Program-made: the position numbers and the translations under genes | Source of the DNA: Alphaproteobacteria bacterium | GTDB lineage: Bacteria > Pseudomonadota > Alphaproteobacteria > UBA828 | Reading direction: 5' to 3' | Length of the DNA stretch: 64,000 bases | Assembly: GCA_963422645.2 (NCBI GenBank) | Contig: CAXXVO010000004.1 | Location: forward strand, 96,001-160,000 | In this document: positions 38,201 to 43,067 of the stretch, in pieces | Numbering within the stretch: position 1 is the stretch's first letter | How the letters are laid out: every line of letters begins with the position of its first letter | Notes under the pieces: model-generated | What the model was told of the DNA's origin: nothing | Databases searched by the model: none | The model's input: the letters and a program-made list of their open reading frames with translations, nothing else

Positions 38201-38824
38201 ACGACCAGCACCAGCCGCGCATTTCTGCTGGACTACCCGGTATCGAGCGCTGGCGGTGTTGACGGATCCCGTGCGCGGGTCCCTCGCGTCCGAGCCGAAT
38301 GCGGAGGCGAGCGCCGACAACGGCATTCCGCCCGCACCTGTGGTGGCGGCGGAACTGGGCGATTTCGGGCCGGCCGTCGCGGCGCCCAAGGGTGGGACGC
38401 CAAGCTCCAGAGCCAGATTCGTGCTGCGTGAGTCACCGCAAACACCAAAATGCACATCCTCCACGGCGGGTACCCAGACCCCGCCGAAGAACCTTTTCAA
38501 ATGGTGGGGAGTCCCCCCCGTTCGAACAAACCAGAAATGTGCTATCTCCATGACTACGACGTGCAAACTTGGCCTTGCAATATACCTATCAACTCACCAT
38601 ATACTTAGTTATGGATAATTGGTTCCGATGATATTGAAAATGCATTTTCATGTCTTTGGGTAACTGCCCAGGTACCCCCTCTCTCTTATGGAACAAGCCA
38701 GTTCCTTTTGCGTCAACGCCCCCACGCCGCGGGGGTGCCTACTCTCTTGAGCGCGAGAGGATGATGAACGCCGCGTCGCGAACAAGATGAGAGGACAGCG
38801 ATACTCAGGATGAGCCGGAGAAGT

Positions 38825-40366
38825 TCAGGAGCGCAGTATAGGGATCAGCTGCATCGGTTCCGGGTGCGCCAGGATTTGCAGGATGTTCCAGCCTTGCTTT
38901 CGAGCGGTGACGATGACGCTGCGCATTCCGGCGAAGTTGCAGGCGCCTTGCAGGGAGCGGAAGCCGCCTGAGATCTTCTCATGCACTTTGTTCATACGGA
39001 TGTCACGCTCCGCCTCGTTATTCGTGAACGGCGTGCGCAGGTCGGTGAGGAAGCGCAGGCAGCCCTCCTTATGCTTTTGAAGGCGGCGCGCGAGGTTGTG
39101 GCCGATGCGGCGTTTCTTTCGCCCTCGCTTTGCGATCTGGAGCGGCGGTTGGGCCTCATGGAAGGCGATGGCTTCTTCGAGGATACGGTCCCATGCCCTT
39201 GAGATGCGGGCCACCAGGGAGGCGGGGACTTGACGGTCTTTCTCACGGGCGAAGCGGGCGGCCCTGCGCGCGCGCTGAAGCAGGCGGTGCATGCTCGCCG
39301 CCCATTCCTCCTTCTCGATGTCGATCAGGGCCTGGAGTTCGCGCAGGTGATGTGCGTTGCAGGCGCCGTGGCGGACGCCCTTGATGGTGAAGTAGGGGGC
39401 GAAGTCGTCGTGGACGAGGATGCCTTTCAGGTTCTTTTCGACACCGCGCGCGCTCACCTCGCCGATGCGCAGGACGGTGAGCAACGGGGTGCACAGCACA
39501 TGGAGCCAGCGGGTACGGGCGGCGATACGCAGGCCGGTCTCGTCGAGGTGCTTGACCGGCGCCTGCGTGCGGATCAGATCGGCGACATGGTCGAGGAAGC
39601 CCTCGAAGCGCTGCGCTGTGCGCCGGCCCATGGCGGCGATCGTGGCAGTGGAGATGGACACCGCGAAGATGTCGCTCATGAGTTCGGCCAGACGCTTCTC
39701 GGGCACGAACTGGGCGTACAGCAGGTAACTCACCCAAGCGGTGATGCGAGGGCCGTACTGGACCGGGGCGGTGACGCCCGGCGGGAAGGCGGCTCGTGTC
39801 AGCGTGCCGCATGCGCCGCAGAGGCAGCGATGGGCGCGGTGTTCGGTGACCTCGAGAGGCTGCGGCTCGGGTACGTCGAAGACCTGCCGACAGGCGGGCG
39901 CGCCTTGCCGGTCGGCGTCCGAGAGCTCGACGCCACAGCCGGAACAGGTGGAGGGGTGGTGATCGACGACACGGTCCGGGCTGTCGCTCCGCGCGAGGGT
40001 GGTTCCCTTGTGGCCGGGCTGGCCGCCACTGGGCCCGCCGGACTTTCCGCGCTGGCTTTGGGTGCGCCTCTGGGCTCCGCTTTTCTTCTTGAGCCCGTCG
40101 CTGGCGGGGGGCTTGCTGCTTGTGGTGCTGTTGAGGGCCGCGCTGCGCTCGAGTTCGGCGATGCGCTCGCGCAGGGCCGCGTTCTCCTGCTCGAGTGCGG
40201 CATTTTCCCGGGCGAGCGCGGTGGCTGATCGCAGCAGCCCCTGCCCCCATTCCCGGACGGCAACGACGACAGTGGTTGCGAGGGATGATGGCTCGAGAAG
40301 CTCCTTCAGGCAGCAGAAGGCCTCGTTACGGGCGGCGAGGTCTTCGTGCCAGTGCGACACCGTCAC
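38825..40366 (-). CDS. tnpC: IS66-family transposase
   Basis: SSKPPASD, HLDETG, CNAHHLREL, TNNEAERDIR; GTG start overlaps the methylase TGA. Confidence 0.9.
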   Translation of the reverse strand: MTVSHWHEDLAARNEAFCCLKELLEPSSLATTVVVAVREWGQGLLRSATALARENAALEQENAALRERIAELERSAALNSTTSSKPPASDGLKKKSGAQRRTQSQRGKSGGPSGGQPGHKGTTLARSDSPDRVVDHHPSTCSGCGVELSDADRQGAPACRQVFDVPEPQPLEVTEHRAHRCLCGACGTLTRAAFPPGVTAPVQYGPRITAWVSYLLYAQFVPEKRLAELMSDIFAVSISTATIAAMGRRTAQRFEGFLDHVADLIRTQAPVKHLDETGLRIAARTRWLHVLCTPLLTVLRIGEVSARGVEKNLKGILVHDDFAPYFTIKGVRHGACNAHHLRELQALIDIEKEEWAASMHRLLQRARRAARFAREKDRQVPASLVARISRAWDRILEEAIAFHEAQPPLQIAKRGRKKRRIGHNLARRLQKHKEGCLRFLTDLRTPFTNNEAERDIRMNKVHEKISGGFRSLQGACNFAGMRSVIVTARKQGWNILQILAHPEPMQLIPILRS

Positions 40367-41028
40367 GTGTCTTCGGCCTCGACGGCCATCATGGCGGCGA
40401 GCACGGCGAGGCGTTCGCCCGGCGGCAAGGCCTGGTAGCGCCGGCCCCAGTTGGCTGCCTTGCGCTTGATGCGCTGGCGGTCGGTGAAGTTCCGGCCTGC
40501 GTGGCTGGCCCAATGCATCCGGTCGGGGGCGTAGTTGAACCAGACGACCTCGGTTCGCACCAGACCCTGGGTCGTGACCTGCAGCGCCAGCCGGCGCCAT
40601 CCCGCCAGCACCTCGTCATAGAGCGCCGACGGATGGCCCGAGATCATGACCTGGCAGGGCAGAGCCTTGAGCAGCGCGAGAAGCGCGACGTGGCCGGCCT
40701 CCTCGTACTCGAAGCGGTAGCGCTGCGCCGAGCGGCGGGTCGCGTGCAGATAGGGCGGATCGCTGTAAACCAGCTCCGGGCCCAGGAACGGGAACGAGGC
40801 CAGGAAGTCATGGGCACAGCCGTGAACCAGATCGACCGGGTAGTCGCAGACGAAGGCCTCGAGCGCCTGCGCATCGCGGTCGATGCCGATCGAACGCACG
40901 GCCGGCGGCTTGCGCTTCGTCAGCGCCCCGCCCCCAAGGTGGCTCTCGATGTAGACGGAGTGCGGCGGCATCAGCGCAATCAGCGCTTGGCACAGACCTG
41001 CTGTCGCCTTCGAGCCGAAATACCCCAT
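40363..41028 (-). CDS. Dam/D12-like N6-adenine DNA methyltransferase
   Basis: YFGSK, YIESHLGGGA (motif I variant), VYSDPPY (motif IV), VMISG, RTEVVWFNY. Confidence 0.85.
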   Translation of the reverse strand: MGYFGSKATAGLCQALIALMPPHSVYIESHLGGGALTKRKPPAVRSIGIDRDAQALEAFVCDYPVDLVHGCAHDFLASFPFLGPELVYSDPPYLHATRRSAQRYRFEYEEAGHVALLALLKALPCQVMISGHPSALYDEVLAGWRRLALQVTTQGLVRTEVVWFNYAPDRMHWASHAGRNFTDRQRIKRKAANWGRRYQALPPGERLAVLAAMMAVEAEDT

Positions 41029-41188
41029 GGACCGCTCCCGTCACGCGAGAGAGCAGTCCATAGTCCCGCAACTCTATGAGGTCAAGAACCAATCGCGGTG
41101 GCAGAACCAGGCCGCGGCCGCCGCCATAATCACCGTCCTCAACTCAGGATTGGGGTACCTGGGTAGTTACGTCTTTGGTGAGATTTTC

Positions 41189-43067
41189 GTAACTGCCCAG
41201 GTCGTCTGATTTGTCATTTTGGGCCAGTGGATTGAGGCGTTTCTCGTTCGGAGTTGGTGGAAAGGGCTTGACGGGAATTTCGGGAAATGACTCAACAACG
41301 ACATGAGCAATCCCGAGTCGCCGCGCGGCCCTTCGACGGGAGCAGCGCCCGAAACGCCCGCGCAGAAGATCGCCCGCCTGGAGGAGGAGAACGCCCGGCT
41401 TCGGGAGGAAAATGCCTGGCTTCGGCAGCAGAACGCGCGGCTGGAAGAGCAAGTCGCGCGTCTCGTCGAGCGCATCGAGGAGTTGGAGCGCCGTCTCGGC
41501 CTCAACAGCGGCAAGCCGCCTTCGAGCGATGGGCTGAGGAAGCCGAATTCGAAGCGGCGAACCCGAAGCCTGCGCGGCAAATCGGGCCGCAAGCCCGGTG
41601 GCCAGCCCGGCCACAAGGGCAAGACGCTGCGCCGCGCCGATCACCCGGATCGGGTGAAGGATCACGTCCCGGCTTCCTGCAAGGGATGCGGTTCGCCGCT
41701 TTCGGACGCGGCCAGGGCGGGAACGCCCGTCGCCCGCCAGGTGTTCGATCTGCCCGAGCCGAGCCCCCTGGAGGTGACCGAGCACCGGGCGCATGCCAAG
41801 TGCTGCGGGCATTGCGGGACGGTGACCCGGGCGGCGTTCCCCGACGGGGTGTCGGCGCCGGTGCAGTACGGCCCGCGCATTGCCGGGGTGGCGGTCTACC
41901 TTCAGCACGCTCACTTCCTGCCGGAGGATCGGCTGTCGCAGGTGATGGCCGAGCTCTTCGGCGCGCCGGTGACGGCTGCGACGTTGGCGACGATGAGCGA
42001 GAGGGCGGCCGAGCGGCTGCGGGACGCGGCCTTGCACATACAGGACCTGGCGGCGGGCACGGCGCGGGTGAAACACATGGACGAGACCGGCTTGCGGATC
42101 GGCGGTCAGACGCAGTGGCTTCATGTGATCTGCACGCCGCTGCTGGCGGCGTACCGGGTCAGCGGCAAGCGCGGCGCCCTGCTCTCGGGTGTCTCCGGCA
42201 TCGTCGTGCACGATCACTGGAAGCCGTACTTCGCGATGGAAGGGGTGGAGCACGGCCTGTGCAACGCCCATCACCTGCGGGAGTTGCAGGCGCTGGTGGA
42301 CATCGAAGGGGAGGCTTGGGCCCGGCGGATGCAGCAGCTCCTGCGCCGAGCCAATCGCGCCGCCCGCATCGCGCTGGACAAGGATATCGCCGTTCCGGCG
42401 AGGCTTGTGGCGCTGATCGAGCGCCGATACGACGAGATCATCGCCGATGCGCTGGCCTTTCACGAGAGCCAACCACCGTTCTCGCCTGGCAAGAGGAAGA
42501 AGCGCCGGAAGCGAAGGATCGGTCACAATCTGGCCTTGAGGCTGCGCGACCACAAATGCGCGGTGCTCCGGTTCCTGATCGACCTCGAGGTCGGGTTCAC
42601 GAACAACGAGGCCGAGCGCGACCTTCGGATGATGAAGCTGCGCCAGAAGATCTCCGGGGGCTTCCGGTCCGCGCAGGGGGCCGAGAACTTCGCCATCCTG
42701 CGCAGCGTCATCACCACCGCCAGAAAGCAGGGCTGGAATATCATCGAAGCCCTGACCAGCCCATCGGATCGGCTCATCGCCACCGTCAAGTGCGCGTAAG
42801 CTCACCTGGCACGGGTTCTCCAACAGCGGAGCCATTCTCATAAACGATCATGGTCGACGCCGTGCTGGACCACCCCATAGAATGAAAATCGGTGCCCGTC
42901 GCGCGGGCGGACTTCGGGCCACATCGGGGTAGCTTACCGGTCGCAGTCCGCAAGAGGGGCATCGTGAGCTGTGAAACCCGGCGACCCCAGAGGAGCACAC
43001 GGGCGTCGCGTGGGTAGCGTTGTGCCGAATCCCAGAGAATTTTCACAGCAAGAACCTGGGCAGTTAC
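41189..43067 (+). mobile_element. IS66-family element, copy B (1879 bp), near-identical to copy A
   Basis: IR GTAACTGCCCAGGT; 8-bp TSD AGATTTTC; transposase differs from copy A at one residue (HNLAL vs HNPAL). Confidence 0.95.
41303..42799 (+). CDS. tnpC: IS66-family transposase
   Basis: Same motifs as copy A. Confidence 0.93.
   Translation: MSNPESPRGPSTGAAPETPAQKIARLEEENARLREENAWLRQQNARLEEQVARLVERIEELERRLGLNSGKPPSSDGLRKPNSKRRTRSLRGKSGRKPGGQPGHKGKTLRRADHPDRVKDHVPASCKGCGSPLSDAARAGTPVARQVFDLPEPSPLEVTEHRAHAKCCGHCGTVTRAAFPDGVSAPVQYGPRIAGVAVYLQHAHFLPEDRLSQVMAELFGAPVTAATLATMSERAAERLRDAALHIQDLAAGTARVKHMDETGLRIGGQTQWLHVICTPLLAAYRVSGKRGALLSGVSGIVVHDHWKPYFAMEGVEHGLCNAHHLRELQALVDIEGEAWARRMQQLLRRANRAARIALDKDIAVPARLVALIERRYDEIIADALAFHESQPPFSPGKRKKRRKRRIGHNLALRLRDHKCAVLRFLIDLEVGFTNNEAERDLRMMKLRQKISGGFRSAQGAENFAILRSVITTARKQGWNIIEALTSPSDRLIATVKCA

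Follow-up and report, generated by a model that had tools for sequence, protein, structure and literature searches.

Why should an insertion sequence (IS) carry, directly ahead of its transposase gene, a gene resembling those of DNA adenine methylases? The question is raised by an IS66-family element of 2,511 bp, located at positions 38660-41170 of the window, as the whole 64,000-nucleotide stretch analysed here is called (positions 96,001 to 160,000 of contig CAXXVO010000004.1, assembly GCA_963422645.2; C5:96001-160000 in the contig numbering used below). The element contains two minus-strand genes, joined by a GTGA junction: the upstream one encodes a protein of 221 amino acids, the downstream one, tnpC, the transposase. 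In the original prediction, made from the letters of the window, the first gene was taken for a methylase expressed with the transposase, which might protect the transposing DNA, control transposition or alter the methylation of the host. The analysis reported here points to another role: promoter, operator-like repeat and first gene probably form a portable autorepressor cassette, which would limit the expression of the transposase. Promoter and gene are found at the head of at least two divergent IS66 lineages, of IS701-family elements and of elements with a third type of DDE transposase.

The limits of the element can be read directly from the sequence. Inverted repeats of 19 nt, beginning GTAACTGCCC, are flanked by target-site duplications (Table 1); terminal repeats beginning GTAA and a duplication of 8 bp are the hallmarks of the family. 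The tnpC product matches both the Pfam model PF03050 (E-value 1.9e-40, 139.5 bits against a cut-off of 23.1) and the NCBIfam IS66 model NF033517 (3.2e-85, 286.5 bits against a cut-off of 180), and the DUF6444 and zf-IS66 domains are also matched. The canonical organisation, tnpA/tnpB/tnpC, is not present: there is room for two genes only between the ends, and the only Pfam match of the upstream gene is a weak one to D12. Since only two genes are contained and the upstream one is neither tnpA nor tnpB, the element is of the tnpC-only IS66 type, with an added gene. The coding regions overlap at the GTGA, which reads tcac on the plus strand at 40363-40366: the GTG of tnpC, at 40366, shares letters with the upstream TGA. 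The repeats, the perfect duplication, the two genes, their coupling and the intact 221-amino-acid gene had all been described in the original prediction, correctly in every detail; its assignment to IS66 is borne out by two models well above their cut-offs, and the cognate nuclease that it reported as missing was indeed not found among the open reading frames between the inverted repeats.

The host genome (5.9 Mb in 23 contigs, with an estimated contamination of 8.48%) was searched for further copies by using blastn. The search revealed 105 pieces of the element at 90% identity or more; 36 of these are full-length, with 99.5% identity or above. All 36 have identical ends, including the GTAACTGCCCAGGTACCCC end, and both genes. 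A perfect 8-bp duplication of a differing, mostly AT-rich target flanks 23 of them, while none is seen for the other 13. The first gene is intact in all 36 copies, encoding 221 amino acids, at most 1 of which differs from the window copy; a full-length tnpC is present in 34 (512 amino acids in 28 copies, 513 in 6) and a truncated one in 2. Because the 36 copies are nearly identical, 23 have a duplication of their own and the first gene is intact throughout, the two genes move together, recently and often, as one unit, which had been proposed from the single window copy. With 36 full-length copies, a chance occurrence of the arrangement is excluded by far. Several of the 13 copies lacking a duplication share one flank with another copy (e.g. 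C15:1643-4150 and C11:29361-31868), an indication that copies have recombined, or that the assembly was joined at repeats.

The association extends well beyond this genome. A one-genome-per-species scan with the protein alignment yielded at least 416 stretches matching the first gene, at least 393 of which were confirmed; the analysis was carried out on the 80 best-scoring loci, designated by an L and a number. These come from about 41 assemblies, as counted by accession prefix, are distributed over several phyla and are often multi-copy. With 36 copies in the host and relatives in these other assemblies, the possibility of a one-off capture, raised with the original prediction, can be set aside. 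In 78 of the 80 loci the first gene is followed within 0-70 nt by a transposase gene or a remnant of one; the two exceptions are L068, located at a contig edge, and L057, where another IS is inserted right behind the gene. The partner is an IS66 transposase near to that of the window in 27 loci, and a distant IS66 transposase in 40, where identity to the window drops to about 31% for the transposase and stays at about 70% for the first gene. In 8 loci, from four lineages, the partner belongs to the IS701 family, with scores of 300-313 bits against model NF049999 in three lineages (cut-off 170) and of 157.7 bits in the fourth. In the remaining 3 loci it is a DDE_Tnp_1 transposase of a third type, which passes the Pfam DDE_Tnp_1 threshold (26.1 bits against 23). 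The name 'ISAs1-like' was considered for this transposase and discarded, as DDE_Tnp_1_assoc scored 24.3 bits, below its cut-off of 32.3, and no NCBIfam model was matched.

The way in which the two genes are joined varies among the groups. In the relatives, tnpC is homologous from its residue 1, which abuts the stop codon of the upstream gene; L011, L012 and L032 retain the GTGA junction. In the distant-IS66 clade (L042, L043, L046, L047, L052, L060 and others) tnpC often starts 3-36 nt past the stop, in frame; gap lengths vary in this group, and some tnpC are out of frame with the upstream gene. The IS701-type units have ends of their own (CTCGACTTTGT...) and 5-bp duplications (CTTAG, CTCAG, CTAAG, CTGAG, TTCAG); those of the third type have perfect 18-nt ends, with the duplication AACGTAA in L054. 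Nested insertion was considered as the source of the partners other than IS66 and rejected, as in the IS701-type and third-type units these ends and duplications enclose both genes; nesting applies only to L057, which corresponds to L045 with a DDE_Tnp_1 element inserted past the gene. In the IS701-type units 410-555 nt separate the left end from the cassette promoter, far more than in the IS66-type ones (L039:3446-4000, L048:3587-4000).

On a first-gene tree, obtained by a quick IQ-TREE run with two distant relatives as the root, at least 8-10 changes of partner are counted. IS701-type partners have at least two origins on well-supported branches, and the third type is nested within the distant-IS66 clade with 98% support. 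For 25 of 27 first-gene pairs the ratio of nonsynonymous to synonymous substitution rates (dN/dS) lies between 0.11 and 0.38, so that, as far as such ratios tell, the gene is under purifying selection and not under the relaxed selection considered at the outset. The same data bear on the idea of a neutral passenger, a hitch-hiker playing no role in the life of the element. Passenger genes are known from a recognised class of elements, the transporter insertion sequences (tIS), according to the accessible part of PMC9330008. Here, in 78 of 80 loci and with three transposase families, the gene is fixed in the position immediately 5' of that for the transposase, to which it is coupled; with dN/dS well below 1 and an intact gene in 36 of 36 copies, this explanation is extremely improbable.

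What the gene encodes was evaluated by profile and structure comparison. The 221-amino-acid protein scores 12 bits against the Pfam D12 model PF02086, below the cut-off of 22, and 21.1 bits against the TIGR00571 dam model, below the cut-off of 114.85. Phage methyltransferase families are matched (phrog_56, 4.8e-17; phrog_1996, 1.5e-12); the single protein, used as query against PDB sequences, matched nothing at E-values up to 10. A profile built from 48 relatives aligns in two parts with DpnM (5.9e-10) and Escherichia coli Dam (1.7e-6): one comprises the N-terminal GxK and ExxxGGGA, the other runs from DPPY onward. Between them about 105 residues of DpnM, from 77 to 183, are skipped, which correspond to its DNA-binding domain; in the 221-amino-acid protein only about 40 residues separate IDRD from DPPY, and no internal target-recognition domain is apparent. 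D90, P91, P92 and G32 are invariant across the 48 sequences, which have 39-88% identity to the window protein. In an AlphaFold2 model (predicted local distance difference test score 92.6) the core is of the Rossmann type, and two long helices, 181-199 and 203-220, form the C-terminus. Foldseek ranks Dam, DpnM, T4 Dam and Mcbe1 highest, with template modelling scores of 0.5-0.57, normalised to the query. Motif I and DPPY, in the order found in Dam, and the Dam-like fold relate the predicted protein to the Dam class. It would consist of a Dam-like catalytic core, in which the internal domain used by Dam for DNA binding is missing, and of two helices forming a C-terminal domain; the label 'methylase' needs a caveat, since the kinship with Dam is visible only through profile and fold comparison.

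The nearest relative studied experimentally is found on plasmids. A tblastn search of PLSDB revealed 150 matching records, all below 60% identity and thus including no close copy; 122 of the 150 are typed conjugative, and among the matches are IncP-1beta plasmids, where the gene is annotated upf31.0. The window protein is 45% identical to Upf31 of plasmid pBP136 over the full length, with GxK, ETHLGGG and DPPY kept. An alignment of 7 sequences including Upf31 has 47 invariant columns, among which R184, R189, E205 and R206 in the C-terminal helices; these helices correspond in the model to the C-terminal domain of Upf31 (amino acids 173-225). According to the accessible text of PMC11997246, Upf31, a predicted Dam homologue, produces neither GATC methylation nor a kinetic signal in SMRT (single-molecule real-time) sequencing in E. 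coli ER2796, a strain lacking methylases. The protein represses its own promoter in trans, from 4.76 to 0.09 XylE units, and the repression requires the C-terminal domain, aa 173-225. The proposed operator is an inverted repeat at the upf31 promoter, and a 68-bp upf31 promoter region, homologous to the window promoter, was active in a reporter assay (PMC11997246, same text).

The C-terminal domain might also act by contact with other proteins: a partner-binding modulator would touch the transposase, or a DNA-binding protein of the host, and alter transposition directly. For Upf31 an interaction of this domain with the plasmid protein KorB is predicted, and the domain is required for a plasmid phenotype (PMC11997246, accessible text); the four invariant residues of the helices fit such a contact. 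No KorB-like gene is present among the open reading frames between the inverted repeats, and the same protein, at 66-92% identity, is paired with three unrelated transposase families. Because one protein serves all three, a specific contact with the transposase is disfavoured, and we regard this explanation as very unlikely.

An inverted repeat between the -35 and -10 boxes, as in Upf31-type promoters, is also found upstream of the first gene in the window. In order to evaluate its conservation, 49 distinct upstream sequences from the loci of the relatives were compared. In 48 of the 49 the same layout was observed, i.e. a -35 box TTGAC, 1-3 nt, CATAG, ten nucleotides and CTATG, the spacer being N10 in 48 out of 48. 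The second half-site overlaps the -10 hexamer, TATGG(T/A), and its A corresponds to position -11. Perfect symmetry between the two 5-nt halves is seen in 29 of these 48 sequences, including some with matched changes on both sides, CGTAG with CTACG in L069 and L082, TATAG with CTATA in L038. The upf31 promoter, TTGACAGCATCG-N10-CGAGACTG, has the same layout. The assignment of the promoter is based on this conserved layout, together with the reporter result obtained for upf31. In the host genome CATAG-N10-CTATG occurs exactly 59 times, and all occurrences correspond to the element's own promoter; alternative spacers of 6-9 and 11-15 nt gave 0 or 1 occurrence. The half-site motif is absent from the inverted repeats of the element. 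A conserved hairpin in the leader, masking the ribosome-binding site, was also considered, as a short stem can be seen by eye in many of the leaders, and was rejected: RNAalifold found no consensus structure for 12 sequences, and the z-scores of minimum free energy relative to shuffled sequences average -0.23 over 48 leaders, with only 3 below -2.

Table 1. Features of the IS66-family element and of its borders, in window coordinates.
Feature	Position	Strand	Remarks
Left copy of the target-site duplication, 8 bp, GTCTTTGG	38652..38659		Read directly; same letters as 41171-41178
Terminal inverted repeat at the tnpC 3' end, GTAACTGCCCAGGTACCCC	38660..38678		19 nt; 18/19 (95%) complementary to 41152-41170
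tnpC, IS66-family DDE transposase, 513 aa	38825..40366	-	GTG start overlapping the upstream stop codon
Upf31-type protein, predicted Dam-like methyltransferase fold, 221 aa, first operon gene	40363..41028	-	ESHLGGGA and SDPPYL present
Putative operon promoter	41057..41085	-	-35 TTGACC (41085-41080), 17-nt spacer, -10 TATGGA (41062-41057)
Operator-like inverted repeat CATAG-N10-CTATG, in the promoter spacer	41059..41078		Half-sites 41059-41063 and 41074-41078
Terminal inverted repeat, promoter end	41152..41170		19 nt, pairs with 38660-38678
Right copy of the target-site duplication, 8 bp, GTCTTTGG	41171..41178		Read directly

These observations are best combined in the following mechanism, modelled on Upf31. 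The operon would begin at the promoter whose spacer is filled by CATAG-N10-CTATG; the 221-amino-acid protein would bind this operator and shut off its own transcription, and that of the transposase along with it, thereby limiting transposition. As the protein would act in trans, each copy would repress all the others, providing a control of copy number, and arrival in a naive cell would allow one burst of expression before repression sets in. Nothing would be required from the transposase, so that promoter and gene form a portable unit, which has been placed before several unrelated DDE transposases; the exchange among families would be explained by this independence. Autorepression and absence of detectable methylation are both carried over, by analogy, from the 45% identical homologue. 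Control of transposition, one of the functions originally listed, is thus retained in part: control of transposase expression is the best supported option, and would probably be exerted by repression of the promoter and not by methylation of ends or targets, given that the half-site does not occur in the inverted repeats. The functions based on methylation are not supported as they were formulated, as Upf31, in the accessible text on it, gives no GATC or SMRT signal and represses its own promoter instead; protection from restriction and a change of the host methylome are possible and lack support.

A related explanation, which we consider doubtful, retains the enzymatic activity. The protein would be an active adenine methyltransferase, targeting only the two operator half-sites, including the A at -11, and the methyl mark would keep the promoter off; replication would generate a hemimethylated site, by which one of the sister copies is reopened. 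Dam acts in this way on IS10 and IS50. The invariance of D90, P91, P92 and G32 and the purifying selection on the gene fit an enzyme; in addition, the single A of CTATG is the -11 position of TATGG(T/A), and the inverted layout offers one such A per strand. The absence of the operator from the rest of the genome would also leave a SMRT motif search of the kind used for Upf31 blind, if performed in a strain lacking the operator. In a wider and similarly tentative form, the cassette would be a portable epigenetic switch, whose protein binds and methylates only the two adenines of its own operator, leaving on each copy a heritable ON or OFF mark. With no greater probability, such a mark would be reset by replication and by transfer to naive cells, and the device, placed before at least three transposase families, would be akin to regulators of conjugative plasmids and prophages. 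The opposing evidence is that no methylation was found for Upf31 and that its repression in trans, dependent on the C-terminal domain, fits simple occupancy of the operator (PMC11997246, accessible text); nor does the protein have a target-recognition domain of the Dam type.

The wider family was explored in order to place the gene outside insertion sequences. It is very large: 3,704 proteins of a collection clustered at 90% match at E-values up to 0.001, and so do 5,554 representatives of clusters at 50% identity, 553 of them below 1e-30. In an even sample of the phylum of the host, 15 of 401 genomes have a match at E-values up to 1e-10, and a near-full-length match is present in only 3 of the 401, including the host. 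In the other two genomes the gene, 42-45% identical, is coupled to an Ogg-HhH glycosylase-like gene and not to a transposase. Distant relatives of 250-268 amino acids and 42-45% identity, with a 4-nt overlap with an Ogg-HhH glycosylase-like gene (PF22175, 4e-13 and 6e-15), were observed at L092:1426-2948 and L093:716-2292; the glycosylase-like gene of this two-gene module gave no match in PADLOC. Relatives of 46-59% identity are also found on viral contigs of about 30-40 kb (L113-L192). Of the 5 loci tested there, 4 have the gene immediately behind one for a replication nickase (phrog_91), and genes for portal and terminase are close by. We take this gene order to be that of P2-like prophages.

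Orphan methylases are common in phage and plasmid settings, and it could be supposed that the first gene is just one more of them, i.e. an ordinary orphan DNA adenine methylase, the leading idea of the original prediction, modifying host and element broadly and offering protection from restriction in new hosts, or a change of the methylome. The protein has motifs I and IV, its fold compares best with Dam, DpnM and T4 Dam, and relatives of about 50% identity lie beside phrog_91 in prophages, as just described, and others on plasmids that are mostly conjugative. In the opposite direction, the protein scores below the Pfam and TIGRFAM cut-offs, the DNA-binding domain of about 105 residues of DpnM and Dam is missing, and the nearest studied relative, Upf31, was silent in GATC digests and in SMRT sequencing (PMC11997246, accessible text). 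Protection from restriction would moreover be of little gain to a chromosomal IS, and the operator travelling with the gene would be left unexplained. On balance this explanation is unlikely.

Several points have to be set against the autorepressor cassette. The repressor function is taken from a homologue of 45% identity, active in a different genetic setting, and Upf31 is also proposed to act through KorB, which is lacking in the IS. The half-sites differ, being CATAG in the element and CAGCATCG in the IncP-1beta plasmids, and a consensus promoter scan of 38600-41250 missed the window promoter, whose -10 box ends in A. The invariance of DPPY and of the glycines binding S-adenosylmethionine, which a pure repressor would not need, argues that some catalysis may have been kept. 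The locus counts are not independent, many copies lying within one genome. Finally, among the dN/dS values one pair, L054 and L084, gives 1.4, the L084 copy looking degraded, and one other pair is saturated.

Other repeated elements accompany the copies in the host genome. In many copies a different repeated element, with the end CAGACTTCCTGACCTC, cuts the sequence at element positions about 176-438, within the 3' portion of tnpC (e.g. C5:164953-167028 and C5:441324-441761); it seems to favour that stretch as a target. Only 18 bp away from the element described here, the window contains a second IS66-family element of 1,879 bp (41189-43067), which codes for tnpC only (498 amino acids, 41303-42799, plus strand). 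The first 14 nt of the ends (GTAACTGCCCAGGT) are common to both elements; the methylase gene and the operator motif are both absent from this second one. Its full-length copies in the host genome number 66, and it covers only about 2% of the genome; nevertheless, sequence of this type is found within 200 nt of one end in 17 of the 36 copies, many of which lie within or beside the initial 100 nt or the final few nt of this second element. The ends of related IS may be targeted, or insertions at these neutral positions may be the ones that survive.

Insertion sequences are usually thought to limit themselves by features of their transposase, or to be limited by host factors. If the autorepressor mechanism is true, the regulator does not depend on the transposase, and its promoter, operator and gene circulate as one module among plasmids, phages and IS of unrelated families. 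A very large family, routinely annotated as 'DNA adenine methylase' and with one studied member, which failed to methylate, would thereby acquire a function and a setting in nature, and caution would be advised in scoring such genes as methylases in surveys of methylomes or restriction-modification systems, especially in the IS-rich genomes of marine and symbiotic bacteria. One promoter and one protein would also make a simple test system for the way in which a methyltransferase fold became a sequence-specific repressor. A literature search found no description of the cassette gene in insertion sequences, although an example catalogued in ISfinder, REBASE or TnPedia, or in a subscription paper, is possible; the accessible text of PMC11997246 has 0 occurrences of 'transposase' or 'insertion sequence'. 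What is added here is the link to the Upf31 experiments, the common operator layout, the boundaries and duplications of the units other than IS66 and the genome-wide uniqueness of the operator.

The element can be compared with several known systems. It has in common with other tnpC-only IS66 elements, which we take to be those called the ISBst12 group, the DUF6444, zf-IS66 and DDE_Tnp_IS66 domains, ends beginning GTAAC, an 8-bp duplication and the lack of tnpA and tnpB. It differs from them by the extra 666-bp gene, which is GTGA-coupled to tnpC and lies, with its operator-bearing promoter, between the end and tnpC. As in the tIS described in the accessible part of PMC9330008, a non-transposase gene is contained within the inverted repeats and moves with the element, as seen in the 36 copies; unlike those passengers, this one has a fixed position and a promoter common to three IS families, and for this reason a part in controlling the element itself, and not a cargo function, is suggested.

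Dam, DpnM and T4 Dam, which belong to D12, and the phage enzymes Hia5, Hin1523 and Nme1821 resemble the predicted protein in the Rossmann-fold core, in the FxGxG-type motif I and in DPPY. The accessible text of PMC3299994 describes the three phage enzymes as non-specific, Hia5 having 281 amino acids and a divergent DNA-binding domain at about residues 80-170. In Dam and DpnM, a DNA-binding domain of about 100 residues lies between the N-terminal motifs and DPPY, where the window protein has about 40.

The closest system is that of Upf31 (pBP136; Elg et al., Mol Biol Evol 2025). Both proteins have about 221-225 amino acids, a Dam-like core and a C-terminal helical domain, and both promoters combine a -35 box TTGAC with two half-sites spaced by N10, the second overlapping the -10. 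The genetic context is different: upf31 stands alone in a conjugative plasmid's accessory region, beside a recombinase gene on the opposite strand, while the window gene heads an operon that also encodes a transposase, inside an IS. The plasmid has operator-like repeats in many places, whereas the operator of the element occurs nowhere else in the host genome, and Upf31 is proposed to act with KorB, of which the element has no counterpart.

In its logic the cassette recalls IS10/Tn10 and IS50/Tn5, the transposase promoters of which are controlled by host Dam. In all of them the control point would be located within the -10 region of the transposase promoter, and a link to replication is possible also for the element described here, if methylation occurs. 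IS10 and IS50 make use of the Dam of the host, while this element would bring along a protein of its own, and with it a putative methylation.

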